From Psammoneis japonica (lineage: Eukaryota): a stretch of DNA of 64,000 nucleotides. The notes beneath the pieces were generated by a model. The model worked only from the letters and a program-made list of their open reading frames with translations. It did not search any database and was not told where the DNA came from. The stretch lies in NCBI GenBank assembly GCA_008632985.1, contig QPGO01000114.1, positions 1 to 64,000 on the forward strand, given 5' to 3'. Below, piece after piece: positions 24,901 through 56,570 of this stretch; the first letter of the stretch is position 1; every line of letters begins with the position of its first letter. Position numbers and translations under genes: made by a program.

Positions 24901-24999
24901 CATCAGACAGCTTGTTGGACTTCCGGCGAGGTTGTTTCAGGCAGAATTTTTGCTTGACTTCTCTTTCATTGTTCAAATGTTGCCAATGCTTTTGGGGCG

Positions 25000-27509: not shown

Positions 27510-27742
27510 TTGACAAAAAAGTGACACCAAATTGATCTGTCAACAGATGGTGCATCAACAAAAAAGCAATGCCAAATTGTTCTTTTGACACAGACATGTG
27601 CAACAACAAAAAAGTGATGCCAAATTGATCTGTCAACAGACAGGCGCATCAATGAAAAAGTGATGCCAGGTTGATCTGTCAACATGTGGGTGTGCAACAA
27701 AAAAGTGATGCCAAATTGATCTGTTGACAGATGGGTGCATCA
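27510..27742. repeat. Tandem repeat, ~45-bp unit, ~5 copies
   Basis: aaaaaagtgatgccaaattgatctgtcaacaga-like unit recurs at ~27515, 27560, 27608, 27655 and 27699. Confidence 0.85.
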
Positions 27743-28123
27743 TTTGCAGTTGTTTGTCATGTGCATTGATCTCAAAGAGATTGTTTTTGATGCAGAATGA
27801 ACGGTGGATGGTGGCTGTTCCTTTGTTTCAGCGGCGGCGTCAACATGAAAACATCACACAACAACCCTGACAAGATGGTGTGCAAGCAAGTTGTTTTCTG
27901 TGCTTTGAGACAGCTGGGATGACCCATTCAATGAAGTCATGCAGCAAACTGGATGGACAAAGATCATGTCACAAGGGGCCATTTGCAAAAAAAAGTCCAC
28001 CGTGCACCCGACAGATGCTGTTGGCAACACAGCAATGGATGCGGACTTTCGCTGAATTGGGTGAAATCTGCTTAAAAAAAGACCAGGTTCCATTTGATTT
28101 GGTGGAGCCAGCATGTTCAGAGA

Positions 28124-31600: not shown

Positions 31601-34090
31601 TGCAGGCAACGGAGCGGCAGCAAATGCCACAATGGCGACCAACCAAACTGGTGCGTAAACACAAATTGAAGCAAACAACAAAATCCAAAAAAGCAAAAAC
31701 AAAAAAACTTTCTGCAAAGCGGTTTGGATGCAAGAACGTGTGGCAGTTGGAAATTTGGATTTGAAAGCAACATGGCAAAGAGACAAAATGTAGGATGAGT
31801 TGGTGGACAATGAGGGTGGATCACAAGCAGCAACATTTGTGTCAAAAGAACAAGAAACCGCAAATGTCAATTGGGGCGCAGGCCACCATTGTGTGAAAAG
31901 ATTGATCATGCTTAAAAGTGGGAAGCGATTTGGGTTTTAGAAGCTCACAAACTTGTGCAGCTCTCATGTTGCATTTAAGGAGAGACTTGGCTCATGAGTT
32001 GACAACAATCTGGCATTGAAGTCAACAAACACCCAGATTGCAGCAGACAGTCAGAACCAGATTGTTGGCATCCCAGATGGTGCAATTTCTTGACACTCTT
32101 CCTTGAAAGCACCGGACAAATTGGGAACTTCAAAACCTCCTGTCAACATGTCAGCCACATTTGTCTGTTGTCTGTGCATCCCAACAGGAGAAGGAGGTGG
32201 TGGGAGGGAGTGTGTCTCTCCCCTGCCCTGACCCTGAACAGAGTGGAGAAAGATGGGTGAGACAAAGTCGGGGTGCCGCGGGTTTGGGGGTTTGGGGGGG
32301 GGGGGGCAACCACTTTCAAAATGACCAAATGTGCAAGCAGTCTTGCACACAAAACAGAGTGCAATCACTTTTGCATGGTTTGGGGATTCATGAAAATCAC
32401 TTTATTTGCTCGCACAAAACATTCCAAATTTTGCATTGCCTCGGTCATTTTTGGGTTGGGATGCCATTGACTCCTGGCCAATTGATTGGTCATTTTTCCA
32501 TTTTGAGGCTGTTGATGTAAAACATTTGAGTGCCAGTTGCTTTTGTCTTTCTTTGCGCCCTTGACAACATGTGCACGTGACAAAGCCCTTTTTTCCATTG
32601 AGATGATGGATGTGGTGATTTTGTGCTTTTTGTGTGCTCGCTTGCTTTCAAACCAGAGATCATGAGGCAGCACAAACAACTCATTCAACACCCTTGTTTC
32701 TGCACCTGACAAGGACAACCACATGATGCAAGCCTGGATTGTTGATGAATTGTTGGTCAAAAGTCATTGTCTGACAATTGCAGTCTTCAGCTGCAAATGC
32801 CTTGCACACAGTCATTTGCAGCACCAGAGGAGCCTGACAGCCTTCTTGGAACCCTCTCTTGGGATCAATTCAAACTGTGAGTTTTTGCAAAATGAGTTGC
32901 TCTGTGTCACATCAGACTGTGCACCTTTTGGGGCTCTGGCTTTGTTGTTCGCACCCCGGTGTTCGAACTCTGCATGCTTGTCATCGACAAACTTGCGCTG
33001 CATTGATTCAAAGCAATGGCGAGTGCGCGAGTGCACATTGGTGGTTTGCAAGCTGTGGCATCGCTGTGATCATGCACAGTCCTTCTTGTTGAGGGTGCGG
33101 TCTCTTCCACAAATTGCGCGGGGCCCTGCAGCAATGGACTGGGCTTCGAATGAACAAAGCAGCTCAACACATTGGGTTGATTGCTCAGGCGCTCAAAGAC
33201 ACGTGACCACAAAGCGCGAGGCAGCCCTGCAATGTTTGTTTTGCAGACTTGGATGCGACCAACTCGATGATGTTGTCTGTGTCATTGTCACACACACCTT
33301 TGCACCTTGCTTGCTGCTTGCACAGAAACAACCAAGCAAGAGAGTCAGTGAGCAGTGAGCATCCCAATTCCCAAATGCCGGTGGCAAGAGGAGGAGTCGT
33401 CGTCACGAGCAGCGTCCGACGTTGGCTTCGAAGCGACTGCGAATTGCAGCCAGCGGCAGCAATCATTGTACAGGTGTCTTGTGCATGTAGAAATTATGAT
33501 GCCGATGTGTTAAAAGATATTTCGTTTGGGTGCTTGTGCTTTTTCTGTTTCCATTTCGCGCGCATTTTCGCACTCTATCTCCAGCTAGGGCCCTGCCGGA
33601 GGCACGGCATGTGAACAGTGGCGAACTTTTTTTCAGGATCGCCTCACAGACCCCAAGACCCATATATCGGTGGAAAGCTCTCGACGAGCTGAACAAGGTC
33701 AAACGCATGTTGCATCGGTCGGAGTGAGCGGAAAGCGAATGTTTGTCGTTGAAAATTTGGTACTTATTTAAAGAAAAATAACGGTTATATTCGCCTTTTT
33801 GTAATTGATTTTTATATTTATATCCAAACATTAATCGTATCATAAATTTGACATTTAATCCGGAGTTCCGAAATCTCATGCAGGATTGTATACTATATAA
33901 ATTACTTATGGGACACCTTGTTTCTATACTTTGCTCTTGCTCTACAGCTCTTACAACTGAAGATATCGAAAAAAGGCTTTCGTCAGTTGCTGCAACTGGG
34001 TGTGTTTTAGTGACTGACGAAAGCCGATTTTCGATAAGTATTTTTGGTGTCGAGATTTTTCAATAGCAAAAATAACTTCGCCACTATTTA

Positions 34091-37941: not shown

Positions 37942-39399
37942 TTTCTCCTCCAACGTTTGATGCAAAAGTGCGCCTTTATCACAACCGAACTTATTTTTTC
38001 TGCCAATACAAATAACCTTACTTACGCTATGAACAGTTCCAGAATTTGCAGATTTCCAGATTGGATGGCAGTTGGCGCGAAAAACGAGACCAATCGTTAT
38101 GTATATCTTCATTAACTTATACAAATCAATGTTTCCTTCACTTGAAGTATGTCAAGGTTTCCGCCGACGTCAGCTTTCGTTTCTCATTTATTTCCGGGTC
38201 TGGGAACAAAACTTCGCTCCGACAGGTTGCCGTTGCTCATCCACCAACACGTGCGTTTGCCATGGCGCGGGCGACGACTTTGCGCTACTGTATTTCTTCT
38301 CGTCTGAGCCAACCCAATGAAGCGTAAGCAAATCATTTCATGAAGCGCAAGGTTAACTTTGAGTTGCAGCCGCAAGGATCAAGTGACAAGGCTTGATTGG
38401 CTCAAAGCAATGTAAGTCAGAGGGAACCACCAAGAAGTGGTCACCAAGTCGTACAACGAGAAGGCCCTCATTGGAGGATGTACTACCGAGACAGAAACAC
38501 AATGTCGCCTGCTAATGATACCTACTTTATAGGAGCTTGCAAGATGTCACGGTTGGCTTACGATCGTTCCTGAAGGTGGAACCTCAATTTCAAATGAAAA
38601 CAAGTCGGCATGCACTCCCACGAGACACGCAGCCACCTCTCTCTCTCTCTCTCTCTCGAACGAACGAACGAACATCCCTCGATGGATCGATCGCATTTCG
38701 CCCATTGGTGTGCGAGGACAGGATGCAATGACGACGACTCCATCAAGCACGTGTCATCTTCCAGCTCGTCCCACACACCCCTCATGCGAAACTTTGGTGC
38801 ATCATCCGCGGATCCTTTTGCCATTTCGCCACTGCAGTTCGGCGGATTTTTTCAACAGCTGACTCTTCAGTCATGATCCGTTTGCATGACAACGGACCAG
38901 CAGCAGTTGGGCAAACGCAGCAGTTGTTCCCGCCCGTGGAAAACAGTGCATCAAGCATGAAACAAGAAACGCAACACCAGTGCAAAATGTTTGCGGTCAA
39001 GAATTCAGAACAAGAGGCAGAATCCTCGGCTGAAGAAGAAGAAGACCAGGTCTTCAGATGAAGAGCTCTTTCAATTAAAGCACCCTCATCAAAAGAGCAA
39101 GACTGAGTCGACTCGAGCAATCCTGAAGCAGCAACAACGACACTCCTCCAACTCCATCAGGCATCCTTCTGGCTCCGACAACGATGAACTCATCTTTCTT
39201 CTGTTGCCCGCAGCAACAATGATGTGTCCGCTTTCCAGTTGAGATGACCACGCCACTGCGCAAAGGTCACTCAACGCAAGCAAGCTCCACCCATTGTGAG
39301 TCACAGTCCTTCCACACGTGCACACCACGCTCATGAAGCTGCGGCTGCTCGACACTGCAGCAGGAATCGGGTGAACACTGAAAGCATTGGTTGTTCAAT

Positions 39400-39520
39400 C
39401 CATCAACCCCACAATGGCGTCAAGGATTTCATCACGAGTTTTGTTGCTCTTGTTGCGCTCAAAGGGTGTCTTGCCCAAGACGAGTTCCAAGGTGAGCACG
39501 CCGAGCGACTGCAAATTCCT
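39400..39520 (-). pseudogene. Short protein-kinase fragment (subdomain IX-like)
   Basis: NLQSLGVLTLELVLGKTPFE resembles DlWslGvl.yEl..G..PF. Confidence 0.5.
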
Positions 39521-39929
39521 TGCAGCGAGCATTTGGAGACTTGTTGGTGGTGTTCGACATCGCATTCCAAGACGAGATGGAGGTGGGTCGAATCCTGAAA
39601 GCAACCACAACAATCCAGAATGAGCGGATGATTGAGACTGCATGTTCAATGCAGCAGCAGAAGAGGGGGGTGGGGGACACGACAGGAGTGAGGAAGAAGG
39701 CATTCTGCAACTACACTGCCCTCCACAATGGCTCCGGGACAAACACCAAGTTTCGTAGTTTCGTGACGACGGTGACGACGACACTCACCGACAATGAATT
39801 TCCATTTCCTGCATGGAATTGCGGGTCATTTATGAGCAGCTTTTGTTTGCAGAGTTGCTTGGTGGCAACCGCTTGGTGACGTTGGAGATCGTGCCGCAAG
39901 TGTGGACTTCCCCTTGCCATGGAAACTAA

Positions 39930-40470
39930 GCCGAGCAGGAATCAGAGGACCCCTTTTTCAGTCAAGCTGACTTCATCACACCCAAAGGATGCAATGATCA
40001 CTTGGGTGTGCTTGCCGTGTCTTGCTTTGGTTGTGAAGAACTAGCTGCAATGTACAAAGCCGAGAAAGACGATTGTTCCAAACTCATGTGTCAAACCGTT
40101 TTGTCGGAGTCTTTGCGGAGTGCTTGCACCGACAGATGCGTGTCGATTTGTGGGGTCATGCCAAGGACGAAAAGCTTGACGAGGTGGACTTGTTGAAGAT
40201 CACACACGACGGGATTGTCCTGCTCCAGGACACCAGTCACAACAGGATCACACGGAAAACACAACAATGTGGAACACGATTAAGGCGAAGGAGTTGGCGG
40301 GCATTGAATTGAGCGAATCTCTCAGCATGATGCAAGCAAGTCCTGTGTCGGCCTTAGCATTTGCCCACCCTGAATCTCAGTGCTTTGCGGTAGGACAGGT
40401 TTTGGCAAGGATCAAGTCGAAAGCCACTCAAAGAGGAAGGGTCTTGAGCTCGGCGTTACCGAAAGATGGC
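39930..40470 (+). pseudogene. METH: Fragment of cobalamin-dependent methionine synthase (C-terminal activation domain), frameshifted
   Basis: SQADFI...HLGVLAVSCFG...DDCSKLM; FAECLHRQMRVDLWGH; HDGI.PAPGHQSQQDHTE; GIELSESLSMMQASPVSAL.FAHPESQCFAVG; GKDQVESH. These correspond to MetH DDYS, LWGY, GIRPAPGYPSQPDHTEK, LTES.AM.PA..VS and YFAVG. Confidence 0.9.
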
Positions 40471-40499
40471 TGTCTCCAGCATTGAACTACCGGGTGCGA

Positions 40500-42417
40500 A
40501 CGTGCTACAGTAGACTGCGCAGAAAATAGACTTGTGAACACATTCTTTGAACTCTTCATCTGTTTGATGCTGTCCATCATGCTCGACTCAAGGAAACGCC
40601 AGAATGCATTTTCTAAAAATGCAAGCTGTGCGAATGTTGTGTTCGTGAATCCGACAAAGCATGAAAGCATGGCAGCCACCAATTTGGCGTTCATCTTCGG
40701 GAGCCAGAACAGTCTTCAAAGAACAATGGGAACACTCACAGACTTTCCTGCGTGCAATTTGCAACAGAGATTGGTTCCCTCAATGCACTCCTCTTGATTG
40801 ATGTCTTCGGTGTCACCATTGTCATGTTCAGCGTGATGCATGGGCGATCCAGGTGGCTTCGTTCTTCGTCATGCATTTGACGACACCATCACAAGAAACT
40901 TTTTTGAAGCACTTGGAAAATGGGACATTCGCCATGGGTTTCTCATCCGTGTCTTTGGCTGGCATCTTGACCACCGCCATTCTCGGAACCATCAGGAGCA
41001 GAGAGTGAAGTCTCCGTCTTCGCCGAGTCGGGTTTCTGAATCGGGTTTTTGGCTGGCATCTTGCCACCGCCATTTTTGGAAACGTCAGGGGCAGAGAGTA
41101 AAGTCTCCGTCTTCACCGAGTCGGATTTCTGAATCGGGTTTTTGGCTGGCATCTTGCCACCGCCATTCTCGGAACCGTCAGGAGTGGAGAGCAAAGTCTC
41201 CGTCTTCGCCGACTCGGGTCTCTGAATCGGGTTTTTGGCTGGCATCTTGCCACCGGAACCGTCAGGAGTGGAGAGCAAAGTCTCCGTCTTTGCCATGGGT
41301 TTCTCATCCGTGTCTTTGGCTGGCATCTTGCCACTGCCATTCTTGGAACCGTCAGGAGCAGAGAGCAAAGTCTCCGTCTTTGCCATGGGTTTCTCATCCG
41401 TGTCTTTGGCTGACATCTTGCCACCGCCATTCTCGGAACCGTCAGGAGTGGAGAGCAAAGTCTCCATCTTTGCCGAGTCGGGTTTCTGATTCGGGTCTTT
41501 GGCTGACATCTTGCCACCGCCATTCTCGGAACCGTCAGGAGCAGAGAGCAAAGTCTCTGTCTTCGCCATGGGTTTCTCATCCGTGTTTTTGGCTGGCATC
41601 TTGCCGCCACCATTCTCGGAACCGTCAGGAGCAGAGAGTGAAGTCTCCGTCTTTGCCATGGGTTTCTCATCTGTGCTTTTGGCTGACATCTTGCCACCGC
41701 CATTCTCGGAACCGTCAGGAGCAGAGAGCAAAGTCTCCGTCTTCGCCGAGTGGGTTTTTGATTCGGGTCTTTGGCTGACATCTTGCCACCACCATTCTTG
41801 GAACCGTCAGGAGCAGAGAGTGAAGTCTCCGTCTTCGCCATGGGTTTCTCATCCGTGTTTTTGGCTGACATCTTGCCACCGCCATTCTCGGAACCGTCAG
41901 GAGCAGAGAGCAAAGTCTCCATCTTCGCCGAGTCGGGTTTTTGATTTGGGTCTTTGGCTGGAGTCTCGCCACCGCTGTTCTCGGAACCGTCAGGAGTGGA
42001 GAGCAAAGTCTCCGTCTTTGCCATGGGTTTCTCATCCGTGTCTGTGGCAGGCATCTTGCCACCGCCATTCTCGGAACCGTCAGGAGCAGAGAGCAAAGTC
42101 TCCATCTTTGCCATGGGTTTCTCATCCGTGTCTTTGGCTGACATCTTGCCACTGCCATTCTCGGAACCGTCAGGAGTGGACAGCAAAGTCTCCGTCTTCG
42201 CCAAGTCGGGTTTCTGATTGGGGTCTTTGGCTGGAGTCTCGCCACCACCATTCTCGGGACCGTCAGGACTGGAGAGCAGTCCACACTCACTCGGGCTTGG
42301 AGGAGGAGAAGGAGAAGTCACCGTCTTCATCGAATCGTGAGTTCCATTCAGCGATGCTTCCGATGACGTGTCCTTCGCACGCTTTGATGCATCAGGGTTT
42401 CGATTTTCACTGCCCAA
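40500..42417 (-). pseudogene. Decayed gene with coding tandem repeats and a Tudor-like segment
   Basis: ORFs 41113-42417 and 40943-41731 (frameshift near 41755) encode ETLLSAPDGSENGGGKM repeats. Downstream FSKCFKKVSCDGVVK...EHDNGDTEDINQEE resembles K.F....y.G.V...YeDGD.Ed Tudor-like domains. Confidence 0.5.
40930..42282. repeat. Tandem array of 15 units of mostly 90/93 bp (two subtypes)
   Basis: ggaaccgtcagga core at ~40985, 41078, 41171, 41254, 41345, 41435, 41528, 41618, 41708, 41800, 41890, 41983, 42073, 42163 and 42256. Confidence 0.95.
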
Positions 42418-43295
42418 CGCAGGACCTTTCTTGGCTTCAGAGAGGCCCTGTCTGATGTGGCTGCCTCCATCCGGTCCATGCAGTGGAGAGAGGTGAAAAA
42501 AAGCAATGAACGAGTTAGGAAGATGATGCGGAAAGAAAAGGAGTGGAGATTGTTTGACTCACAATGGGATGAACGGACGATTTTTTGACATGATCTTCGG
42601 ATCCGGTCTGCATTGCATGGAGACGAGAATGCAAGCATTGAAAGAATGAGAAACATGACACAAAGAGAAAAGGAGTGGACGTGATTTTTGTTGAAAAGTC
42701 CGTCACTCACGATGGGATGGATTCACGAATTTCCGTCGAGACCGGCGCCTTGTTGTTTTCTTCGTGTGAAAGCTTCATTGCAGTGAGATGCAGTCTCTTG
42801 TGCAATGGGGTGCACAAAGATGTCGGAGGTTGGCAGCAACATCAACAGCAACAGAGACAAACAGACTTGTCAAAGTCATTCTCTTGAGATTGTGGCAAAA
42901 GTTCGTTGGTGATTTTGAAAAAGCAACTTGTTTTCGGCTAAATGAATCAACGAGTCTGGGTTGTGGTCGTGTTCTGTCTGCAACCAAATGGCGTTGAATC
43001 GTGACTGTCATGACCCAACAAGAGTTCTTGCAAATCACATGGGAAATGTTGCAAGACTGAAGCCTGTGCAATGGAAAGGAAAATTGTGACCTGCTTTTCG
43101 AGGAGTCGAGGCGCATTGCGTCAATCAGAGGTCCGCAACATGACTGGCTGAGACGACGTGTCGAAATGCTGCGAAGAGGGAACAATGAGGAAGAGCTCAA
43201 TCGGTTGGCAGTCGAGTTGATGGGCTTGTCACATGAATCCGGAGTCCCCTGCGCCAGAGTGCATGACTCCTCGAACTTCGTAAGACGAGTTTACA

Positions 43296-43470
43296 GTGAG
43301 TGGTCCCGACGATGTCCCCGCAGCTCACCCCGAAGTCATTGATCTCACGGGAACCGACAACAAAGTCATTGATCTCACCGAAGCCGACAACGAGGTTGCT
43401 GATCTCACCGAAAGCGATGACCAAGAGGATGAAAGAGAACAAGAAGCGACGGAAACCAGACAAATGACAT
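43296..43470 (+). pseudogene. Coding fragment with three tandem SUMO-interacting-like motifs
   Basis: VIDLT, VIDLT and VADLT at 30-bp spacing, followed by an acidic tract. Confidence 0.4.
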
Positions 43471-44949
43471 CAGTTCTCTCCACTGGAGTGTTTGTTGCAA
43501 TCTGTGCCAACTTTCATTGTGGACAGTTTTTGTTGTGTGGAGTGGCGGTTTTACATCCTTTTTGCCATGCGAAGTGGGCTCTCTTGTGCTCCAATGTCAT
43601 TGCGCATTCCGTGGCGTCTGGCAACAACTGTCAGGACCGGGGTTTTACACCGGTGTTGCAGCCGACCACCCGAGTCCAAAATTGGTTGACATGAGTGTTC
43701 ATCATTTGTCATTCCATCCGGATCTCTAGGGCCGCTGCCAGTTTGAATGCCTTGGCCGGGACACAAACATCTCTGTGGGATCTAGGCCATTGCAGAGAGA
43801 TCTGAGCAGCAGCCACAGCCAACATTGGCCATTGTAGATCATCAGCGATGAGGTTGAGAGTTCAAGTCATTGGAATCGGTGGCCACTCCATCCCCGTCGA
43901 TCCACATTGTCACCGTCGTGCTCAGTCATTTGATCCAGTGGGTCAATGGTCCACTCTTGGTCTGACTCAATGCTTTCACTGTCACGGACCGGATTGACAA
44001 ATTCACCTTCCTCTGTCCCTTTGCCTGATCTCCAACCTGCGCCACTCTCGTCAGACAAGGATCCGCCTTCAACCGGTGGACGACCTTTTTCTTTTCCACC
44101 AAAACTAAAAAAATGTTGCTTCCGTGAAATAAAAGTTCAATGAAAAGTGCTTGCGAGGACATCACTGTTGGACAAGGGGCATTCGATGCCTTCGTGGTGG
44201 TGATTCAAGACGCACCTTTTTTGTTTTCGACCAACGTGCTCCTGGGTTTTGCCCGTCTGCTGATGAGCGGTCGCTGCGGTGAAGTTGTCGAACCACCAGC
44301 AGCATTGCAACTGCCACGACAGACAAGACTGTCGCTGCAACATGCAGTGCCCAATCAATGTTGCCCTTTCCACCACCTTTGCTGCAGACCGGCGCTGTGA
44401 AGGAATCAATGTCTTTGGAAAGCTCTTGAATGTATGAGCCGTGCTGTTCTTTCAGGGACAGCTCAATCGCCATTTTTCAATGCGTTGAAAGCATCGATTG
44501 TTTCTCCCTGGACTCTGATCTTGACATGCAGAGCCGCTTGGGACAGGTGTCGGAACGACAAGTGCACAATGCCATCACTTTCACTGTCTGGCTCATGCAG
44601 AAACTGCGAAACGACAAGAACGTCGTGAATGACGTGTGCCTCCACCGGCAACTGCCGGTTCAAGACGGTCTTGGCAGCATGGTCAAAAGCTGCCTTGTCG
44701 GTTGAATCAGTCAGCTTTGTAAGAATGTCCGCAAAGAGGAGTGTCAAGTCGACAGATGCCTCATGAAATTCTGCAGAATTGGCTTTGGTTGGGCTGGGAA
44801 TGCTTTGCTTGGGATGGAGCGGGTGTCAAGGGGGCTGTTGAAATTGTTGTTTGGTGGGTGAAGACGGATGCAGGCTGGGTGCTGCAGATGGATTCGACAA
44901 ATGGCCTTCCTCACTGGCGCTTGGTGCTGAAGAAACAGTCTCAACTCCA

Positions 44950-45990
44950 GAAGGCGCGTTTGAAGAACCCGCAGTGTGCATGATGCTGACGGTTGGTTGA
45001 GGATTGGCAGATGGAAAAGCACTTGGTGAAAGCTCATCGTCGGAGAAGCACTGAATGATGGAAAACCACTGGGTGCCGGGCTGCTCGATGGAGCTTGTGT
45101 TGCGACATGGTTGCCTGCCCACAGCATCCATTTTGTCGACCCAATTGCGTTGGAGGGCGCCACACATGTGAGACACTGGCCATTGGCTTTGCTTTTTCTC
45201 CCAAAAACAGGTTCGTAACATCCAACAGGACAAGCAATGCCCTCACACCCACAGCGATTCGGTTCAAGCCCAATGATGCTGAGCACAGCACACAATGCCG
45301 GCAGAATTTCACCCACAAGACCAACGCCCAAGACTCGGAGAACTTCCAACGGAAATGCACCGAAGCATTGAGGAATCTCGCCATTGATGGATGTGTTTCC
45401 CGAAATGTCAAATGCAAGGAGCTTCGTTGGTTCAGGAATGAGAGAACGTCGGGAATTGAACCGGAGAAGTTGCTTGCTGCCGATTCCAGATGAGTTCTTG
45501 CTCCCAGGATGAGGTCGGAAGGATCCCTGAAAGCCTCTTGTTAGAAAGATCAATGCTGGTGATAAAACTGTTTGCATCACAGACAACACCTGTGAAATCA
45601 CAGCAATTGTCAATGGCGGGCCATTTGTGAAAGCTCTTAGACTGGTGGTGTCCCACATTGTTGGAGTCATCAAGGGCATTTGGGGCCTCAATTTGGTCGA
45701 GTTCCTCGGGAGTCCAGGTTGCAGTCGTCGTGGGTGCCAGAAGACTCTGTGCTGCACTCGGCATCAGAGCTTGCGGGAGTGGCAGTGGCTCGCACACATC
45801 ACCTTCGCAGCAGACTGCTGAAAGCAAGCCGGCCTCAACCTCAGTCAAATTGGCATCAACCAAGGGGTCAGCAGGCGGTGCAATTGGGGCATGTTCCGAA
45901 AATGTGCCATGCCAACATCCAGTGGGATCATCCATCCATTCTGTTGTCTGTGGCTTCGCGAAGCGCAGATCCGCCTTTTCCATGTCTCAA
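44950..45990 (-). pseudogene. Decayed leucine-rich-repeat receptor-like gene
   Basis: CDFTGVVCDANSFITSIDLSNKRLSGILP; FDISGNTSINGEIP; GLVGEILPALC; GCEGIACPVGCY. Frameshifted. Confidence 0.7.
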
Positions 45991-46986
45991 GAGAATTCCC
46001 ATGACTTTGATTGCACCAGGCCTGCCGAGTGTCAGGGCATTTCAGCTTGAATGCATTCAGTCTGGTGCTTCTAATCCGGGTCTGACTACAAGCACTTCCA
46101 CCATGTTGAGCGTGCGCGTTGGAGGGAGTTTTTCCAAATCAAACTGTCGCAGAAGTCTACGTCTTTTTCGCACTGTGCTGACCAGTCGAATCATCATTCA
46201 GCAATTGCAGCAAACCACCAAAATGGCATGGGTTCAATCGCTGAGAGCCTGTTGACTGCTGCATCGTTCTTCCACCTGAGTGAACGAGGCGCAGATGTCA
46301 TCAGTGAAGTCCGTGCGGGTGCTGCTTCCTTTCTGATGCTGAGCTGTCGGCTCTGTTGCTGGCACACCTGCGGATTGTGGCTGAAGCTGGTGTTGATCAC
46401 GATGACGCAGTCTTTTGCTGTGGCACTTTCGGCTGGAGCCGCTTGTTTTACTTTTGGATTTTTAGGAACCTCCCCTTTGCCTTTGTGCTCCGGGAATTGG
46501 TCTCAGCGCTTTTCTAACTTGTGGACTGGTCCAAACCAATGACTTCACACTTGAACAGGCACATGATCAATTTGGCAGTGGTCGGGAATTCTCCTTGCGA
46601 CAACTGCTCTTGTGGGCATCACTGATGAAAATTTGTCCCAGAAGCGATCAAGCACGCAAGCGTTGTTGACTTGATTGGCGTTGCAGCAATGCCTCGAACG
46701 ATTCTAGCCGTGTGCAGCATGAAATCGAAGATGACAGCGTTGGCGATGAGGAACTTTGTGACTGTGACGGCCACAACGATGTCTGGGCCATGCCGAACAA
46801 GGACGGCAAGTCGAGCAAAGATGACAACAGGGTGAGTGAGTCAGCTGCTGTGACTGTCAGACACGACAAAGAGAGCAACACAAATGCTCAGGAAATCAAG
46901 AGAAAAGAGCTCAAGCTGGGCTTCGATCATTCCCCAAAGCCGGATGATGTGACCCCGGACTCTCCTGCTGCCCGTTTTGCTGCTTT

Positions 46987-47634
46987 GGTTGGCACTCCAT
47001 GGGGCCAGTGACGCATTGACATTAGATCGGGAAATTGCATTGAAAAGCATCAAGTGGGATTGGCAATCACTCAAGTCTTCCCCAGATCAATTCAAGTGTC
47101 AAACAGGACAAATTCAGGTTTGTGGATGACTCCTGGAAGACGAATCGACTCATTGTGCTAGAAGCAGTGAAATGGCATTGGAAATTTGCTTCACAGCGCT
47201 TCGCATCCAGTGAGGGCTGACCACGAGATTGTCTTGGAGGCAGTCAAATTGAACAGGATGCATTTGGCGTGCGCCTCAACAGAACTTTGGGCCAGTGCTG
47301 ACATTGTTGTGGAAGGGGTCCGTCAAAATGTGAAAGCTTTTGAGTTTGCTGCGGAGCATCTGAGAGGCAGCCGAGATGTTGTTTTGTCTTCTGTCAAGCA
47401 TGTCCTCGGTCCAGCTTGCCTTGACCCTCATGTGCTTGCCTCCACCATGCGGACGTCCAAACACTTCACACTTCCCAAAGAAACCGAAAGACTGATTTCG
47501 ACTGTCACTGCTGGCATCTGGTGGCAGCATCATGATCGAGATGGGGTTGGAGCCTTCACTTTCTGCTGTGCAGCCAAAGCAGACAAAGAAACCGCTGCAC
47601 AAAACTGCATGGAACGAGTGTGGAAGCATGACCT
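46987..47634 (+). pseudogene. Hypermutated partial copy of the DUF4116-repeat gene (homologous to 62192-62885)
   Basis: Direct nucleotide alignment, e.g. tgagggctgaccacgagattgtcttggaggcagtcaaattgaac is identical in both. Two internal deletions. Confidence 0.95.
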
Positions 47635-47635
47635 T

Positions 47636-47937
47636 GGGAAGCCATCTCATTGCCAAAGCAGGGAGGGACTCGAACATGCAGCACATGCACAACAAACACT
47701 TTGGTGAAGGAAGAAATGGCACAGCACATTTTGGATGAAAATCCTTTCATGAATCTTTTTCTTGTCAAGTCTGGTGTGTGCCCACCTGGACTTCAAAGGG
47801 CAGGACTCGATGGTGTTGAAAGAACAATGGTGCGGAGGTTTGAGTCCAAGTGATGAGGCAGCAGACCCCATGGAATTTTTCATTGCTTTTCATCACCAAG
47901 TTCCGCAAGACCTGGCTTCCTTGCCTTGACAATGCTT
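47636..47937 (+). pseudogene. Hypermutated C-terminal fragment of an NSUN/Nop2-family RNA m5C methyltransferase (homologous to 52632-52892)
   Basis: GGTRTCSTCTTN..EE vs EGTLTYSTCTIN..ENEE; aligns at nucleotide level to the 52.6-kb copy. Confidence 0.85.
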
Positions 47938-48005
47938 CAGTTTTTATGCCAAACAAGAACTGGCACATTGTGCTGCTGGAAGATGTCAACCTGCACAATT
48001 CTTCC

Positions 48006-49350
48006 ATGGAGCATTCGGTGGTGACTCGGTCTCAGTGGACCCATCGCAACGCACTCATGGCTGGAATCATTGTGGTGGTTTTGTGTGTCATCATCATCAC
48101 CATTGCTGTCTTGGTTCCGGGTGGTTCTTTGAATGGCAACAGAGCCGCGCTCACAGACAATGGTGTGCTCAAGGTGGAGCTGATCAATGCGCATGATCAC
48201 TCCGATTTTCACTCACTTGACAAGAATCAACTCGATGTGAAGGATTCTCCGCAGAACAAGGCGTTTGAATGGCTTCGCTGGCATCCCAAGCACAATTCGT
48301 TGACGCACGCGAAAAAGTTGCAACTGTTTGCTCTGGCTGCTTTTTGCTGCTCGACGAACGGTGTCAAAATGGCACACAGCAAAGATGGGCCCTCCTGGAA
48401 GAATGCTCGTGATTGGCTCTTGTGCAATGAAACCAAGTGCATTTGGCCAGGATTGTTGTGCAACGACGAGGAAGAAATTGCCAAGATTTCTCTACAAGAC
48501 AATGACTTGATGAGACGATTTCCACCCGAAATGATTTGGTTGACTGAGTTGAAGTGCATCGATGTCACCACCAACAAGTTGTGTTTGGAAGGACCCAACG
48601 CACTCAATGTGCTGGGTGTTTTCAAAAACTTGCATGCCCTTCAAGCCGATGACAACTGCATTGTCACCAATGGTGGTTTGCCTGAGAGTTTGGGAAACTT
48701 GGTTGAGCTAAAAAAGTTAGTCTCATCATGCAACCTCATGTCGGGACCACTCAACAATGGCGTTCTGGAAAACTTGGGCAAACTGACGCACTCGGAAATC
48801 GAGTCCAACTTTTTGACGGGAGCCTTTCCGGCCATGATGGGAGAGTGGGACAATTTGGGTGAGTTTTTTGTTTTTGGTTTCTGTTGAAATTGCCATGGGT
48901 TTCATGCTGAACAAGAGCCAATGCATTGCACCGTTCTACTCTCACCACAGTTTGTCTCTGCATGAGGCAAAACGCCCTCACCATGGATTTGAGTTGGTTA
49001 AAAACGCATGAGATGGGGAATCTCTTTGCACTTTGGTTGGGTTCCAGCAATGTCAAAGGAGGAATTCCCACCAAAATTGGACAATTGACGGAATTGGCAT
49101 CCCCTTTGCTTGCCCATGTGGGTTTGGGTGGGGTGTTGCTGTCCAAGATTGGCAATTTGACGGGTTTGCGGCATTTCTGGATTTACACCAATGGCATTGG
49201 CAGAACCGTTCCCAAGGAAATTGGGATTTGAAGCAATTGGAGAATTTTGAAACCCATGACAATGCATTTTGACAAAAAAAATCGCTCACTGCGGATTGCA
49301 AAGAGGCGACGTGTCCCACGGACACGTGCTGCACAGAGTGTTGGCAAACT
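48006..49350 (+). pseudogene. Decayed diatom-type transmembrane LRR protein gene
   Basis: TM helix, SPQNKAFEWL, LQLFALAAFCCSTNG..W (from ALA.fYYsTnG), C.WPGLLC, LRRs (LPESLGNLVELKKL, IPTKIGQLTEL). Probable intron near 48860-48950; later stops. Confidence 0.75.
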
Positions 49351-49859
49351 GCTGCAGTGGTGGAGTCGGAGCTGCGCAATGTTGTTTTAGAAGAAGGATG
49401 CACAATGCTTGCAAATCATCTTGCTTTCAGAAATGCACTCAAACTGACAATGAAGAGAGCGCATGGTTCTGCACCCTTTTGCAGTCAGACTGCGGCACTT
49501 GCAATCTGCTCCCAGTGCACCACCAGCTTCACATGTGCTGCTCCACAAAGTGGGCGAAGTGATGTGTGCTGCCCAGTGCGACACCCCAGCCAGAGAGCTG
49601 CAGCAACTGTCATTGCATGCTGATCAAGCCCTTGCATTGGAAGAGTTGGCACAAAAACCCCACAGCAGTCTTTTTGTTGTGCTTGAGCACTGCAGCACTT
49701 TCTCTCTGACAGATTTGCTCAAGGCTTCTCTTGGGGAGCTGAGACTTGATCTCAAGCTGTGATGCAATCCAGAGAGTGGCATGCTCCTGAGCTGCTTCTT
49801 GCTCTTTCCTCCTTTCATGCAAGGCTTGTCTGGCACAGCTTTGCCCCCCAGTCACTTCA

Positions 49860-51200
49860 TCCCCATGCCAGGAGATGAGAGTTGAAGCTCCCAACTCCAG
49901 AGTGAAGGGACACCATGATGCCACCAATCAACACAACAAATGCAGGCTGAGGGCATTTTGGCTCTCTGATGGGGCCAAGGGAGCACTTTGAGAATGGTGG
50001 CTGCATGTTCCACAACTTGTGTGGTGCAGTTGTGGCTCCCACAGTTGCTTCATCTACATGTCAGAGTGAGAGCTGACACAAGGCTCCCAACTTGAGAGTG
50101 AAAGAGAACACCCTGACACCAACAACCAACAGAGCAGCTTCAGGTTGAGGGCACTGCAGGTTGCTGGTGAAATCCAGGGAACAATTTGAGGGTGGTGTGT
50201 TGCAAGGCTTGTCTGATGCAGTTTGGCTCCCAGCCACTTTTTCCCCATGCCAGGATGAGAGTTGAGGTCCCAGCTCCAGAGTGAAAGGACACCAGGGAAC
50301 ACTTTGAGGGCAGTGACTGAGTGTTGCAAGGCTCATCTGGTGTGCAGTTTGGCTCCCAGTCTTTTTTCCATGCCAGCATGAGAGTTGAGGTCCCAGCTCC
50401 TGAGCAAAAGGACACAGTTGTGTCACCATCCAACACAACAATTGCAGGCTGAGGGCATCAAAGGTCCATGGGGTGGAGCCCAGGGAGCACTTTGAGAAGA
50501 ATGGTGTTTGAGTGTTGCAAGGCTCATCTGGCACACTTGTGGTCCCCAGCCACTGGATCCACACCAGAATGAGAGCTGAAATTCCCATCTCTGGGATGAA
50601 AGGACACCCTGGGATGTGACCAACCAACACAAGCTGGGGGCACTGCAAGGGTCTCTTGTGAAGCCAGAGGCACACTTTGAGTTTTGTGGTTGAGAGTTTC
50701 AAAGTCCATCTGGTGCAGCTGCAGCCCCAGTCTCTTCATCCACACCAGCAGAATGAGGAGAGCTTGAGTTCTCACCAACTCCAGAGTGAAAGAACACCTT
50801 GATGCTGCCAGCCAACACAACAAATGCAGACAGAGGACATTGAGGATGTCTGGTGGAGCACAGAGAAGAACACTTTGAGAACAGCAGCCAAGTGTTGCAA
50901 GGCTCATCTGGAACAGCTGTTGCTCCCAGTTGCTTCATCCCCACCAGAATGAGAGCTGAAAAAGCTCCCAACTCTGGAGTGCGAAAATGCCCTGGTGCCA
51001 CCAACCAACACAAAAACTGCAGGCTGAGGGCATTGAGGGTCTCTGGCAAAGCCCAGGGAACACTTTGAGAATGCTTGCTGAGTGTTGCAAAACTCCAATG
51101 GATGAGTGATCCAAAAGGCTCCTCCTTCCAGTGCAGGTGTGCCCCCAACAGGCGCTTCATGCACACCAGGATGAGACTTGGAGCTCCCGCAACAACCTCC
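49860..51200. repeat. Degenerate tandem array, ~190-bp unit, ~8 copies; one inverted copy at ~56270-56420
   Basis: Recurrent tgagag(t/c)tga...ccagagtgaa...caacacaa...gctgagggca...cactttgag...gtgttgcaaggctcatctgg. The segment ccagatgagccttgcaacactcaa at ~56287 is its reverse complement. Confidence 0.85.
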
Positions 51201-52594
51201 AGATTTAAATGGCAGCCCAATTTCGCTGCCTCAGACACCAACTTTGTGCAGCTCCAGCTCATCAAAATTCTTGTGGAGCTTGATTTAAGGTCATTGAGCA
51301 GCATGGGAGGAGGGGGGGGTGTCTCAGTGTGGTCAACCACTTTGAGCATGGACTCAGAGGTTGGTCTGTTGCTTGAGAGCAAGGCTGCACTGCCTTTTGG
51401 ACCCAGACTTTGCACAGCCCCAGCATCAGAAGCCATGGCTTGGAGCCAAGCTTGCACAGCTTGGGGGAGGGTTGCACTGCCTTTTGGACCCAGACTTTGC
51501 ACAGCATCAAAAGCCATGCTTCCTGGGGGGGGAGTTGAGGACACAAAAGCAGTCTGGCCCACTTTTTGATCTGGTCTTGTTGAAAGTTGAATGCAGCCAA
51601 TTTGAGCCCAGGTGCACATGAAAAAAGCATGGGTGTGTCTTTTGAAACACATGGCAACATTGTTGGGGGACAGAGATCCAGCATCAAAGAGAGAGTGCAA
51701 GAAAGACACATCCAAACAGACTCAGGCTGGTGGTCTCCTTGCCAAGTGCAAGGGTGAGCAGCCTCACTGCAGCCAGAGCATTGAGAGAGCAAACAACAGC
51801 AAAAGAGCTCTCAACTGACACAAGGAGCTCCGGCTTCATCTCAAAAAGATCCAAGACAAAGTCAACAGCTGCAGCCAAAAGCCACGTGTGACACCTTGCA
51901 CTCATGTCAAGGTGCAGGATGAGGAGCAAAGGTGCAGCGGGCAGATTGCATCTGCCTGTCTTGATGCGATTTCATTTCAAGAAATTCTCTTTCCGAGCTG
52001 ACCAAGACTGATGGAGGGCAGACGCATCCCCTGAGAAAGCTCCAAAAAATGAAAATGGTGGGGAGACCGCTGAATAACGGGACAAAAGAGACCGAGACAA
52101 CGGAAAAGGCCAACCCTGCTGACCGACACTTGAACCTGTGTGTGCTGCACAGCTTCCCTTGGCTGCTGCTCATGCCATTTTATTCCCAGTTCTTGAGCCA
52201 GCCAACCGCATCCGCGTCAGCGTTTGGTTTCATGATGTTGTGTCACCCAAAACGATGTTGGGTGGACGCGACTGTCGTGCTGTGAGACGTCTTCGGATAT
52301 TTTTGTTTAGGCTATTGTGAGTTACACAAATTGGTGGATAAATACAGGTCATAAGTACTACAAAAAATCATTTGCTGCCGTCAATAGAAATCATGTAACT
52401 CGGCTACCTACTGTGAGTGTTGGGAGGTTGGGCATAAACGAGGAATGACTGTGGCAATAGTCAATACTCTTGATCCGTTGCTAGGTATGTGCTCTATTCC
52501 TCGAAGTGGGATTGTCGTAGACAAGAGTATGATGTATGTATTCTTGTTGAAACGACTCTCGACTCTCGACAAACTGTTCTTACTGGCTACTCGT

Positions 52595-52892
52595 TTTTCT
52601 AAGCATTCAAACTACCAAAGGCGTTTTGTTAGGGAAGCCGTCTCATTGCTAAAGCAGGAAGGGACTCTAACATACAGCACATGCACAATAAACACTTTGG
52701 AGAACGAAGAAATGGCACGGCACATTTTGGATGAATATCCTTTTATGAATCTTTTCCTAATCGAGTCTGGCGTGTGCCTACCCGGACTTCAAAGGGCAGG
52801 ACGACTCGACGGTGTTGAAAGAACAATGGTGCGATGGGATTTGTCGTCGCCAAGTTCCACATGACCTGACTTCCTTGCCTTGACAATGCTTC
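52595..52892 (+). pseudogene. Unmutated C-terminal fragment of an NSUN/Nop2-family RNA methyltransferase
   Basis: YQRRFVREAVSLLKQEGTLTYSTCTINTLENEEM (motif VI, YSTC). No N-terminal part; internal deletion relative to the 47.6-kb copy. Confidence 0.8.
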
Positions 52893-53604
52893 GCGTCGAG
52901 AGGCTTCTTCGGATACTATCTTTTAAGTGCACAAGCGACATGAAGCCGCACTGCCAAGGAAAAGTCTGTTTACATGTTTCTCTACCTAGGAGAAGAAGTG
53001 ATTTCGGTGCGACTTATGATCTGCAACAAGCCAATAAGAACGACGTGGGAGGGAGAGACTCAAAATCGTCGAGAGACTAGGCCTAGCGTTTTGTTGGGCG
53101 GCTTCAATTACTGCTTTTAAGAGAATGTGTTCGTATGCCGTTCTTTGACATTTCGATATGGCTGATATTGTAAAGATGGTGCCTTGTTTGTTGTAAAGGT
53201 GCAAGAGACAGGCCTATCTAAGCCCTCTCCACCAGAGAGTGAAGATCCTCATTCGCCCGAAGTTAGAGTCATTGGATGCGGTTTGTAGAAGGTCTATAAA
53301 AGAGGCGTGAATCCGCATGCGAGCATGGAGTGTAGGTAAACGTTACAAATTCTCTTGCACTCTCTCTGTACTGCCTCTAGAGGGAGATGTACTCTCTTGA
53401 TAGTGTTAGCAGTAGGGAGTAGCAAGCGAGTCTTCTGGTTCCAGTGTAGTGCTGCTGGGTTCCGTCCCGGGGCTGCAGATAGAATAGATAGAATAGAATA
53501 GAAGTAACTCTACGCACGAGCACCATAGCAAGATAGAGAGCAGGCGGGTTTGGCGCCACGACCATAAACGAAAAGTGCAGGATTTCTTCAGGTGCTAAGT
53601 ACAG

Positions 53605-56570
53605 CACATGGTGGAAACAACCCTTCACTCCACCTGCCCCTCAGCACACTCTTCATGTCCCAAAAAACAACCGCAAAGTGTTGAGCACAGTTTGGGTTGC
53701 TTGCTCTCCTTGACTGCAGTTGTGGCAGCAGAGCAGCAGCTGGTTGTGTGCAGAAACCCCTGCGCAGCAGGCAAAGTGTCAACCGACATCACAAATCATT
53801 TCTGCACAATTGCTTGCACTGTCAGCTTCTGAGCACACCCTTCATGTCCCAAGAAACAACCTCAAAGTTTTGAGTGCAGTTTGGGCTGCTTGCTCCTTGA
53901 CTGCAATTGTGGTGGTGGCAGCAGAGCAGCGACTGCTGGGTGTGCAGAAGCCCCCGAAGCGCAGGCAAAGTGTCAACCCACAGAAAAAGTCACTTCTGCC
54001 AAATTGTTTGCACTTTCAGCTTCTGAGCACACTCTTCATGTCTCAAGAAACAACCTCAAAGGGTTGTGCACAGTCATTTGGCTTGCTTGCTTGACTGCAA
54101 ATGTGGCAACAAAGCAGCACTTGGGTGGGCAGAAATCCCTGCAGGCAAAGTGTCATCCCACAGAAAAGTCACTTCTGCCAAATTGTTTGCACTTTCAGCT
54201 TCTGAGCACACTCTTCATGTCTCAAGAAACAACCTCAAAGGGTTGTGCACAGTCATTTGGCTTGCTTGCTTGACTGCAAATGTGGCAGCAAAGCAGCATT
54301 TGGGTGGGCAGAAATCCCTGCAGGCAAAGTGTCATCCCAAAGAAAAAGTCACTTCTGTCAAAAGGTTTGCTGCATTGGCTTCTGTGCACCTGGGTTTGGG
54401 CAGAAATCCCTGGAGCAGGTGTAAAGTGTCAACCCACAGAAAAAGTCACTTCTGCTGAAAGAGTGTTTGCAGCCTTGGCTTCTGAGCATGCTTTCAATGT
54501 CCCAGGAAACAGCCTCAAAGGGTTCTTGGGCACAGTTTGGGTTTCTTGCTTGTCTGCAAATGTGGTGGCAGAGCAAAATCTGGTCAAGAGCAAGAGAGAG
54601 GCCTGGTGGAAAAAGTGTCAGCAGTGTCAGCAGATGAGCCACCTTTGCCAAATTGTCTGCACTCTCAGATTTTGAGCACACTCTTCATGTGACAAGAAAC
54701 AACCTCAAAGTGTTGAGCACAGTTTGGGTTGATTGCTCTTCTTGACTGCAGTTGTGGTGGCAGAGCAGCAGCTGGGTTTGCAGGAACCCCCGCAGCAGGC
54801 AAAATGTCAGCCCACAGCAAAAGTCACTTCTGCCAAATTGTTTGCACTTGCAGCTTTTGTGCAAACTTTTCATGTCCCAAGAAACAACCTCAAAGAGTTG
54901 GGAACAGTTTGGGCAGCTTGTTTGACTGCAAATGTGGCAGCAGAGCAAAAGCTGGGCAGGAGCAAGAGAGGCCTGGCTGGTGGAAAAGGTGCCGGCAAGC
55001 AGAAAATGTTGCTTCTGCCAAATTGTTTGCACTGTCACTTTCTGAGCATGCTCTGCATGTCCCAAGAAATGACCTCAAAGTGTTGAGCATAGTTTGGGTG
55101 GTTTGCCAGTCTGCAGCTGTTGTGTCACATCAGCAGCCTCTGCTGGGTGGGCAGAAATCCATGCAGGCAAAGTGCCCACCCATGGAAAAAAATCATTTTT
55201 GCCAAATTGTTTGCAGCCTTGGCATCTGAGCACAATCTTCATGTTCCAAGAAACATCCTCAAAGTGCCGAGCACAGTTTGGGTGGCTTGCTTCACTTCAG
55301 TTGTTGTGGTGGCAGCTCAACTTCTTTGCAGAGCCCAGAAAAACCTTTTGGCAAAGTGCCAGCCAGCAGAAAAATCACTTCCACAAATTGCCCACACTCT
55401 CAGCAGCTTCTCATCACACTCTTCATGCTGAGTTGTTTTTTTTTTGTTCCACCAAATCACGATTTTTTTTGCTGCCGGCCCTGCCACCAAGAGTGCTCTG
55501 CACATTTTGCACAAAATGGCAGCCACATGCCATCACACTCACAAGCCCCACACAAATTCAATCTGAATTTTGCCATTGGTGCACTGCAGCTGGAAACCAC
55601 AGGGAGGAAGCAACCACCTCACCATGATGACAGCTCTGTGATGGTTGCCATTTTCACAATGGCATCACCACCTTGAAGAGAGCCACAACAACCGACAGTG
55701 TGTCGTGTCTCATGTGGGCCAATGTGCAGCACAATTGACATGTGAAAGTGCACAGGCTTGTTGTTGACTTGTGCAGTCAAAAAGCAACCATGAAGGGCAA
55801 AAAATTGAATGTTTCAGCTTTTTGCACTGTGGTCAATCAACTCCAAAGCAGAGCGAGGCGCGTGCCTGTGAAATTGATGACACGAACTGTTGACATGTGT
55901 CAGTGTGATGGTGAGTTTGCGGTGATCATTGATGGAGCACATTGCGTTTTTGGTTGCTGTTTTTATTGTGTTTTCACAAGTCAGGAAAAATTTGAAATGT
56001 CAAACACTGGTGTTTGGAGTTGTGCTGCAATTGTGCACAGGCTCTTCACACACTCTCAACAGTGTTTTGTGTGCAGAGTGCTCACATTTTCACACACGGC
56101 AATTCAATGAATGAACAACACATTGGCATTGATTCATGAAAACAACATGCATTGATGTCCACATGCAAACACTGGGCTTGTGGCCAGAAAAAAATTGATT
56201 TTCAGCAAAAAAAAAATGGGCAGGGCTTCAGCTTTTGTTCTGGTGCCCGTGGCATGAATGAAGTGAGGCTGTGGTCCACAGCTGTGCCAGATGAGCCTTG
56301 CAACACTCAACCACTGTTCTCAAAGTTCTCCCCAAGTTCCACCCCAGACCCTCAATGTCCTCATCCTGCAGCAGTTGTTGCACTGGTTGGTCGCACCAGG
56401 GGGGTTGTGCTGCTCGCTGGGGGCACTCAACAGAGTCCAAACATGCACCTCACACAAAGCCAGTCTTTTCACAAATGATGCTCACTGCTGAACACACAGC
56501 AACCAAAAGGGTTCTTTGTGTCACATCATGGATGGCAGCCATCACACTTTAGAAAGGTCTTGCTGGATGG
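53605..56570. other. TpA-depleted domain 3
   Basis: TA is dense up to 53600, almost absent until ~56550, and normal from ~56655. Confidence 0.85.
53640..55400. repeat. Tandem array, ~180-190-bp unit, ~9 copies
   Basis: cttcatgtc(c/t)caagaaacaacctcaaag-like core at ~53652, 53841, 54034, 54213, 54493, 54683, 54869, 55054 and 55237. Two adjacent 179-bp units are nearly identical. Confidence 0.9.

Follow-up and report, generated by a model that had tools for sequence, protein, structure and literature searches.

Hypermutation directed at the dinucleotide TpA has been described in the chlorarachniophyte Bigelowiella natans, where it strikes integrated DNA of nucleocytoplasmic large DNA viruses (NCLDV) and virophages (Mettrop et al. 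2026, bioRxiv 10.64898/2026.01.13.699255). In mutation-accumulation lines of this alga, two regions, one belonging to an integrated giant virus and the other to a virophage, received 231 of the 302 new single-nucleotide mutations. All but one of these 231 were A>G or T>C changes, all of them on TpA, at a rate of about 6e-7 per site per generation. The B. natans genome also contains clusters depleted in TpA and enriched in CpA and TpG, as well as 324 coding sequences with almost no TpA, among which reverse transcriptase and DDE endonuclease domains are over-represented. The authors proposed that an ADAT2-like DNA adenine deaminase (ADAT/TadA-like) is responsible, and their discussion refers to the editing of DNA by amphioxus ADAT2. 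In the literature that we searched (one collection), no report of TpA hypermutation in diatoms was found, and the B. natans preprint was the only one dealing with TpA hypermutation. Here, we describe a comparable footprint in a 64,000-nucleotide stretch of the diatom Psammoneis japonica (GenBank assembly GCA_008632985.1, contig QPGO01000114.1, positions 1 to 64,000; hereafter referred to as the window), which holds both an intact DUF4116 gene and a damaged copy of part of it. The erasure of TA from this DNA is regional and directional (TA to CA or TG), it is accompanied by a matching rise in TG and CA, and it affects only one copy of each duplicated pair. Our reading of the whole, held with moderate confidence, is a chromatin-targeted hypermutation of TpA, probably through adenine deamination at 5'-TAY, combined with decay of CpG.

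Results

Loss of TA and CG from one copy of two duplicated sequences

The protein encoded by the intact DUF4116 gene matched Pfam family PF13475 in six stretches (E = 1e-91, 300.6 bits, curated cut-off 24.9), and two overlapping open reading frames (ORFs) of the damaged copy still scored above that cut-off (63.9 bits for 47186-47704 and 41.9 bits for 47171-47704). Alignment of the copy (46987-47634) with the corresponding part of the gene (62192-62885) gave 552 matches and 91 mismatches, i.e. 85.8% identity without gaps, and the mismatches comprised 55 transitions and 36 transversions. The copy has also lost two pieces, of 26 and 21 bp, and carries several indels of 1-2 bp, so that its reading frame is broken. 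The sequence-only reading of this DNA had ascribed a spectrum of TA>TG/CA and CG>TG/CA changes to the copy and not to the intact gene, and the counts bear this out: the intact stretch contains 11 TA and 49 CG, whereas the copy contains 2 and 20, respectively. TA of the intact gene is replaced by CA at 62243, 62650, 62697 and 62766, by TG at 62417 and 62500, and by AA at 62827, and the only fully aligned TA that the copy retained is the CTAG at 62390, whose survival had been noticed before. Thus, seven of the eight fully aligned TA were lost, six of them as CA or TG. The earlier count of seven sites changed to TG/CA therefore holds for six, the seventh (gtacg/ctgca) lying in a gapped stretch where it is unscorable. 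Of the 11 TA of the intact stretch, three are not fully aligned, one situated in the 26-bp deletion (62321) and two in the gapped 3' end (62850 and 62857). Among the 45 aligned CG, 15 were retained and 19 had become TG or CA. The intact gene itself has an observed/expected ratio (o/e) of 1.02 for CG and 0.34 for TA. Among the matches listed for its protein (8000 candidates scored), no relative was more than 47% identical, most being 25-40% identical.

A second, independent pair of sequences adjoins the first one. The DUF4116 fragment abuts, with an overlap of 0-1 nt, a fragment of an NSUN-type gene, the counterpart of which (52632-52892) codes, according to Pfam, for the end of an RNA methyltransferase of the NSUN/RsmB type and also matches NSUN6 structures. 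The two NSUN sequences (47636-47938 and 52632-52892) differ by 26 mismatches. All eight TA of the counterpart are lost from the fragment (four to CA, one to TG and three by transversion), as are nine of 11 CG (eight to CA or TG, and one to GG). When both pairs were pooled, transitions were found at 11 of 34 bases in TA compared with 20 of the 407 A/T bases outside TA (Fisher test, odds ratio 9.3, p = 3e-6), and at 28 of 117 bases in CG compared with 15 of the 343 G/C bases outside CG (odds ratio 6.9, p = 8e-9). Transversions were also somewhat raised in TA (4/34 vs 13/407 for other A/T bases, p = 0.034). Altogether, 15 of 16 fully aligned TA and 39 of 56 aligned CG were gone, while other sites differed by only about 8%. 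The 56 CG include 27 converted to TG or CA and 17 retained, and the 15 lost TA comprise 11 transitions and four transversions. The footprint is an old one, with background changes mixed in.

The DUF4116 copy is a dead, internal gene fragment in silent, repeat-rich diatom DNA. A processed pseudogene (retrocopy) was considered for its origin and rejected, since the copy is an internal piece, bounded at 47634 by a fragment of an unrelated gene. There is no A-run at the junction, and the copy does not correspond to a full mRNA 3' end. Taken together, the host gene fragments of the surrounding domain, at least three including this copy, look like end-joined filler DNA. Near-identical inverted repeats were noticed upstream of the intact DUF4116 gene, in TA-normal DNA: one pair at 59639-59722/61272-61355 (84 bp, 97.6%) and another at 56681-56746/59560-59630 (71 bp, 93%). 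They may represent small mobile elements or, alternatively, promoter pieces that are shared.

TA is erased from whole domains

The sequence-only reading had also concluded that the functional copy was spared by the process. That the damaged copy was picked out for being a copy is, however, not supported. The whole 13.5-kb domain around the copy and two further domains are TA-erased (cf. Table 1), with a TA o/e of 0.05 over 40 kb. Apart from the DUF4116 copy, the erasure extends to satellites, LRR ORFs, one ORF resembling a transposon, and pieces of methionine-synthase and NSUN genes. For the comparison, which concerns the 64-kb window only, an erased class was composed of 8917-9481, 10425-33468, 38560-52074 and 53601-56549, 40,073 bp in total. 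It contains 125 TA (3.1 per kb, o/e 0.048), whereas the remaining 22,984 bp contain 980 (42.6 per kb, o/e 0.612), although the GC content of the two classes is nearly equal (0.489 vs 0.472). CG is also reduced in the erased class (o/e 0.44 vs 1.00; 26.4 vs 55.8 per kb), while TG and CA are increased (o/e of 1.64 and 1.67 vs 1.13 and 1.19; TG+CA 206.9 vs 144.5 per kb). The mass balance is close, TG+CA being up by 62 per kb and TA+CG down by 69 per kb. In the domain that holds the DUF4116 copy, the o/e is 0.58 for CG and 1.48-1.56 for TG/CA.

The edges of the domains are sharp to about 100 bp; at the right edge of domain 1, for instance, 32800-33468 contains 0 TA and the next 200 bp contain nine. 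A TA-free stretch at 8917-9481, to the left of an assembly gap (N run at 10137-10424), probably belongs to the same domain. Between this stretch and the gap lies a patch with 11 TA (9482-9910), which is possibly a young insertion inside erased DNA. TA-normal DNA of the window (6969-7528 and 2980-4018) also contains repeats that are not erased, namely a tandem one of 178 bp and a direct one of 450 bp with 85% identity, and repetition alone therefore does not trigger the process. The loss of CG was uneven within the erased DNA, ranging from 88 CG per 1.5 kb in 41001-42500, where there is a single TA, to 6 CG per 2 kb in 49501-51500. Since CG varies widely where TA is equally absent, the two losses are at least partly uncoupled.

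Table 1 Features of the window. Positions refer to the 64,000-nucleotide stretch; o/e, observed/expected ratio.
Feature	Position	Strand	Remarks and basis
TA-erased domain 1	10425..33468	.	68 TA in 23,044 bp (o/e 0.043), CG o/e 0.39
TA-erased domain 2, holding the DUF4116 copy mid-way	38560..52074	.	54 TA in 13,515 bp (o/e 0.066)
TA-erased domain 3, mostly a satellite of ~180-190 bp	53601..56549	.	3 TA in 2,949 bp (o/e 0.015), CG o/e 0.135
DUF4116 gene fragment, frameshifted, internal, about codons 237-468 of 543	46987..47634	+	alignment to the intact gene, Pfam PF13475
Intact DUF4116 gene, 543-aa ORF, six repeats, in a TA-normal segment	61483..63114	+	ORF, Pfam
NSUN/RsmB-type RNA methyltransferase gene fragment, adjoining the DUF4116 fragment	47636..47938	+	self-comparison of the window
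TA-normal counterpart of the NSUN fragment, with TYSTC motif, in island 52075-53600	52632..52892	+	self-comparison, Pfam, NSUN6 structures
B12-dependent methionine synthase activation domain, pseudogene fragment in three frames	39930..40482	+	PF02965, E = 7.9e-16, 6e-10 and 1.4e-8
LRR-type ORF	47844..48884	+	347 codons, 0 Tyr, 13 His, 12 Cys; family multi-copy in run X1
ORF of a transposon-like family	10833..12200	-	Crypton/DUF3504-like tyrosine-recombinase lead
ORF without Pfam match	19494..21236	+	581 codons, 0 Tyr, 31 His, 34 Cys
Satellite array, 90-bp unit	40928..42278	.	in domain 2
Satellite	49818..51094		erased domain 2
Satellite	53640..55427		erased domain 3

Direction of the change and flanking bases

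The direction of the change could be read from conserved tyrosines. In the methionine-synthase fragment, a conserved Tyr has become His (PAPGY>PAPGH) and another one Cys (SKYFAV>SQCFAV), while the Tyr codon of the NSUN6 motif VYSTC, which reads TYSTC in the TA-normal copy, is a Cys codon (TGC) in the erased one; the direction TA to CA/TG is therefore fixed. The same shift is visible in translation throughout the erased DNA, where ORFs of at least 100 aa (n = 146) contain 0.07% Tyr, 4.6% His and 5.3% Cys, compared with 2.3%, 3.3% and 3.1%, respectively, in such ORFs elsewhere in the window (n = 51). Stop triplets in the erased 40 kb comprise 98 TAA+TAG versus 975 TGA, and because TAA and TAG are almost gone, many long ORFs overlap each other on both strands.

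The few TA left in the erased DNA are not a random sample with respect to their neighbors. TA flanked by a purine on the 5' side and a pyrimidine on the 3' side (RTAY) is nearly absent (erased vs normal DNA: ATAT, 0 vs 79; ATAC/GTAT, 1 vs 151; GTAC, 2 vs 69), TA with only one of these flanks is 6- to 30-fold rarer, and YTAR is retained best (TTAA, 25 vs 30, i.e. 0.48 of its normal density; CTAA/TTAG, 35 vs 85). This pattern would fit recognition of a 5'-TAY half-site on one strand or the other. In the two sequence pairs, transitions had occurred at 10 of 12 non-YTAR sites versus one of four YTAR sites (p = 0.06), which weakly favors a target preference over a preferential re-creation of TA. 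No consistent strand bias between TG and CA was seen in 1-kb steps, both dinucleotides rising equally.

The erased sequence in sequencing reads

The sequence was present in only one public sequencing run, here called X1, which contained 0.88 of the sampled words of 44000-52000. Contigs of this run were aligned to 42400-49700 at a likeness of at least 80%. One of them, of 822 nt, reproduces 47360-48181 with 0 differences and spans the junction of the DUF4116 and NSUN fragments, while another, of 465 nt, reproduces 48873-49337, again with 0 differences. The region is multi-copy in X1, as 199 contig pieces were aligned, 130 of them with a likeness below 99%. The differences between X1 and the window comprised 584 transitions and 201 transversions. 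Among the 40 of these 785 differences that were listed, the window has CA or TG against TA in the read in 14 cases and against CG in 12, whereas the opposite was found once for TA (window TA, read TG) and four times for CG (window CG, read TG/CA). Other copies or alleles in X1 retain TA and CG where the window has lost them. The summed contig depth over 47280-47767 was 110-120, compared with about 56-66 for each single contig; this depth is not a copy number and suggests that only two contigs are present there.

Contents of erased and TA-normal segments

Recognizable genes are found in the TA-normal segments, namely those for ornithine carbamoyltransferase (35422-36459) and a DUF2470 protein (37072-38151), the NSUN exon and the DUF4116 gene. 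The ornithine carbamoyltransferase is 77-80% identical to that of centric diatoms, among them Thalassiosira, Ditylum, Helicotheca and Discostella, which identifies the window as nuclear diatom DNA, from a species not represented among the proteins searched. In the 146 ORFs of the erased domains, Pfam analysis recognized DUF4116, the methionine-synthase fragment, a weak LRR and a borderline PhyH match, and all of these but the LRR scored above the cut-off; none of the 146 had a viral or transposon match. Domain 2 contains at least three host gene fragments, including the DUF4116 copy, and its LRR-type ORF is probably a hypermutated former gene. The 581-codon ORF of domain 1 may be a former gene of an unknown family, because it is long even for TA-free DNA. 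In the 90-bp satellite array, three columns mix CA and TG among the units, with no CG or TA left, which is consistent with independent hits on a TA ancestor, although a fully decayed CG would look alike.

The transposon-like ORF of domain 1 (10833-12200) had 216 homologues, the best with E = 2.5e-47. A DUF3504 match was found in four of the eight homologues scanned, one of them above the curated cut-off, and an Atlas search pointed to relatives among Crypton-type tyrosine recombinases, which is a lead and not a proof. Only one of its 456 residues is Tyr, compared with 1.0-4.6% in 14 homologues. At the 14 columns where at least 40% of the homologues have Tyr, the ORF has Cys at three, His at one, Tyr at one and another residue at nine, but with about 30% identity the family is too diverged for a strong test. 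No relatives of this ORF were found in metagenome DNA, either with the single protein as a query or with a smaller alignment. One homologue (P0248) contains 1.0% Tyr, 3.4% His and 3.4% Cys, whereas Tyr amounts to 2.4-4.6% in the 13 others, and it may represent a TpA-erased copy in another sample or organism.

Discussion

Comparison with known systems

We regard the TA-erased domains of P. japonica as a second case of a process that has been described once, in the chlorarachniophyte preprint. In both organisms, TpA is changed to TpG or CpA on both strands, the change is confined to certain regions with normal DNA outside them (in the diatom, within the 64-kb window), and no homology trigger is needed. 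Depletion of TpA with enrichment of CpA and TpG is clustered in both, and in B. natans it also extends to coding sequences of transposon type. The differences are, nevertheless, considerable. The host is a diatom (Stramenopila) and not a member of Rhizaria, and what was seen to be hit is satellite DNA and fragments of host genes, besides one ORF of transposon type, instead of recognizable viruses. The diatom case is known from a long-term footprint alone, whereas de novo events were recorded in B. natans. The erasure is near saturation (o/e 0.05 over tens of kb), while the TA o/e given for the NCLDV region of B. natans is 0.45. Furthermore, CpG is co-depleted in the diatom, about a quarter of the lost TA disappeared by transversion, and there is a flank rule (RTAY lost, YTAR kept); the word 'CpG' and the words 'flanking' or 'trinucleotide' do not occur in the preprint text.

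Three better known processes share some of these features. Like repeat-induced point mutation (RIP) of filamentous fungi, the diatom process disables repeated or silent DNA permanently by point mutations and leaves a dinucleotide footprint. However, RIP changes CpA to TpA, raises TA, hits both copies and is triggered by homology, whereas in the diatom TA is erased, one copy is affected and location leads. The CG losses resemble deamination of 5-methylcytosine, as 27 of the 39 CG lost in the two pairs became TG or CA and the CG o/e of the domains is 0.13-0.58. Decay of CpG does not, however, explain the loss of TA, which is more complete (15/16 vs 39/56) and also occurred where many CG stay, as in 41001-42500. 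Finally, hyper-editing by ADAR and editing by ADAT2/3 or TadA likewise consist of A>G changes, strongly favored where U/T precedes the edited A. While these enzymes are known as RNA editors, the diatom change is fixed in DNA, in place and on both strands, and we saw no sign of an RNA or retrocopy intermediate.

A model of the process and points against it

Our findings led us to propose that the process is targeted by chromatin state or location and not by homology; the intact DUF4116 gene would have been spared because it lies outside the targeted domain. Within domains, nearly every TpA would be converted, mostly to CpA or TpG and equally on both strands, through a putative enzymatic deamination of DNA adenine at 5'-TAY of either strand, which would remove RTAY and leave YTAR as the best surviving context. 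The loss of CpG would represent ordinary deamination of 5-methylcytosine in the same silenced DNA. Tyr codons would thereby turn into His or Cys codons, TAA and TAG stops would vanish, and captured genes and transposons would be permanently disabled. The parts of this model differ in strength: that mutation of TpA is targeted to regions we regard as highly probable, while adenine deamination as its chemistry comes close to an even chance. The latter is favored because the changes are mainly A>G/T>C, T stands before A, both strands are affected and the sole experimental precedent agrees.

Several observations weigh against this proposal: (i) four of the 15 lost TA were changed by transversion, while a pure adenine deaminase predicts none and almost only transitions were reported for B. 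natans; (ii) the flanks of surviving TA could also mark sites of new TA, formed by C>T after a pyrimidine; (iii) apart from one transposon-like ORF, the process has struck satellites and pieces of host genes, and none of the targets is recognizable as a virus; (iv) the sequence occurs in a single read set (X1), which may be the source of the assembly itself; and (v) the 1.5-kb TA-normal island at 52075-53600, which is located between two erased satellite blocks, looks like a gene end only and yet is not erased. The island carries just the C-terminal NSUN-type part (profile positions 111-162 of 199) and no terminal repeats were found around it. Whether it represents a recent insertion or a real, short gene, some genes that look incomplete have escaped erasure, and the statement that all non-genic DNA is hit is too simple.

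Alternative explanations

The transversions bear most directly on a thymine chemistry acting with the same regional targeting. The T of TpA might be modified to 5-hydroxymethyluracil or a base-J-like derivative by a TET/JBP-type enzyme, and mispairing of the modified base or its error-prone excision repair would then give mainly T>C, but also T>A and T>G. Dinoflagellates replace thymine with 5-hydroxymethyluracil preferentially at TpA and TpC, although we know of no evidence for a thymine-modified base of this kind in diatoms. All four TA transversions can be written as T changes (two T>A, one T>G and one A>T, the last being T>A when the complementary strand is read), so this route would explain them, and the somewhat raised transversion frequency at TA, better than adenine deamination does, and the palindromic preference for RTAY fits recognition of duplex DNA. 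Yet four transversions are few, and the only experimental TpA precedent consists of nearly pure transitions, for which its authors favor adenine deamination. On balance, we consider the thymine route rather unlikely, but it is the chief rival to adenine deamination as the chemistry. Selection against TA, for example as a transposon landing site (TA is the target of Tc1/mariner elements), a TATA-like promoter or the site of a TA-cutting nuclease, could remove TA by any type of change, transversions included. It would, however, need to remove some 1,500 TA one by one from dead DNA such as pseudogene fragments and satellites, the changes are mainly the two transitions, and the mutation-accumulation lines of B. 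natans yielded the same signature by mutation; selection is therefore quite improbable.

On some long-read platforms, base modifications can lead to systematic miscalls, and the platform of run X1 is not on record, so TA might have been misread as CA/TG and CG as TG/CA. Against such a sequencing or assembly artefact stand the two k-mer contigs that reproduce the erased sequence exactly, the TA-normal sequence that the same run reads in neighboring segments and in other copies, and the transversions, indels and other substitutions, which indicate that the divergence is real. We judge it very improbable. The smallest credence, equal for both, is given to the last two alternatives. In neutral decay of a pseudogene in methylated DNA, CpG>TpG/CpA changes are expected, and the TA changes would have arisen by chance or come from a diverged paralogous donor. 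The 36 transversions and many indels do imply that the DUF4116 copy is old or derived from a paralogue, and the summed depth over 46792-47279, which is 201-226 where single contigs have 56-66, would accommodate further relatives of its first part. A paralogous donor had also been suggested in the sequence-only reading; the regional pattern is independent of this question. But the excess of changes is specific to TA (p = 3e-6), the independent NSUN fragment next to it lost all of its TA as well, and decay would raise TA in former coding DNA, whereas the o/e of the 13.5-kb domain is 0.066. An RIP-like mutation triggered by homology of duplicated sequences might be suspected because RIP is the classic repeat-directed point-mutation defence and the erased 42400-49700 is multi-copy in X1. 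It is contradicted by the single affected copy in both pairs, by the destruction of TA, since RIP creates TpA from CpA, and by domains that include DNA between repeats and have sharp, location-like edges. The distinction from RIP that had been drawn from the letters alone thus holds, on the grounds that TA is destroyed and that one copy of each duplicated piece is affected.

Significance

The erased DNA has a practical consequence in that it yields long, false, Tyr-free ORFs on both strands, which are a trap for gene prediction. If chromatin-targeted hypermutation of TpA is accepted, the TA o/e would be an easy way to mark silent chromatin in genomes of this kind, and host-derived junk and transposons, not only viruses, would be among the targets of the process. 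The same footprint in a different major lineage suggests that it is old or recurrent in the SAR supergroup. As diatoms are ecologically dominant and good genetic tools exist for some species, the hunt for the enzyme becomes testable. A further step, which we offer as a doubtful though not far-fetched idea, is that diatoms and chlorarachniophytes share a genome defence in which an ADAT/TadA-like adenine deaminase of DNA, guided by chromatin, attacks 5'-TAY on either strand and so rewrites every TpA in silenced or invading DNA to TpG or CpA. If true, this would be an 'inverse RIP' that abolishes Tyr codons together with TAA and TAG and kills transposons, viruses and stray gene copies, and such a defence may occur widely within the SAR supergroup and may have a hand in much of the non-coding DNA of diatoms.

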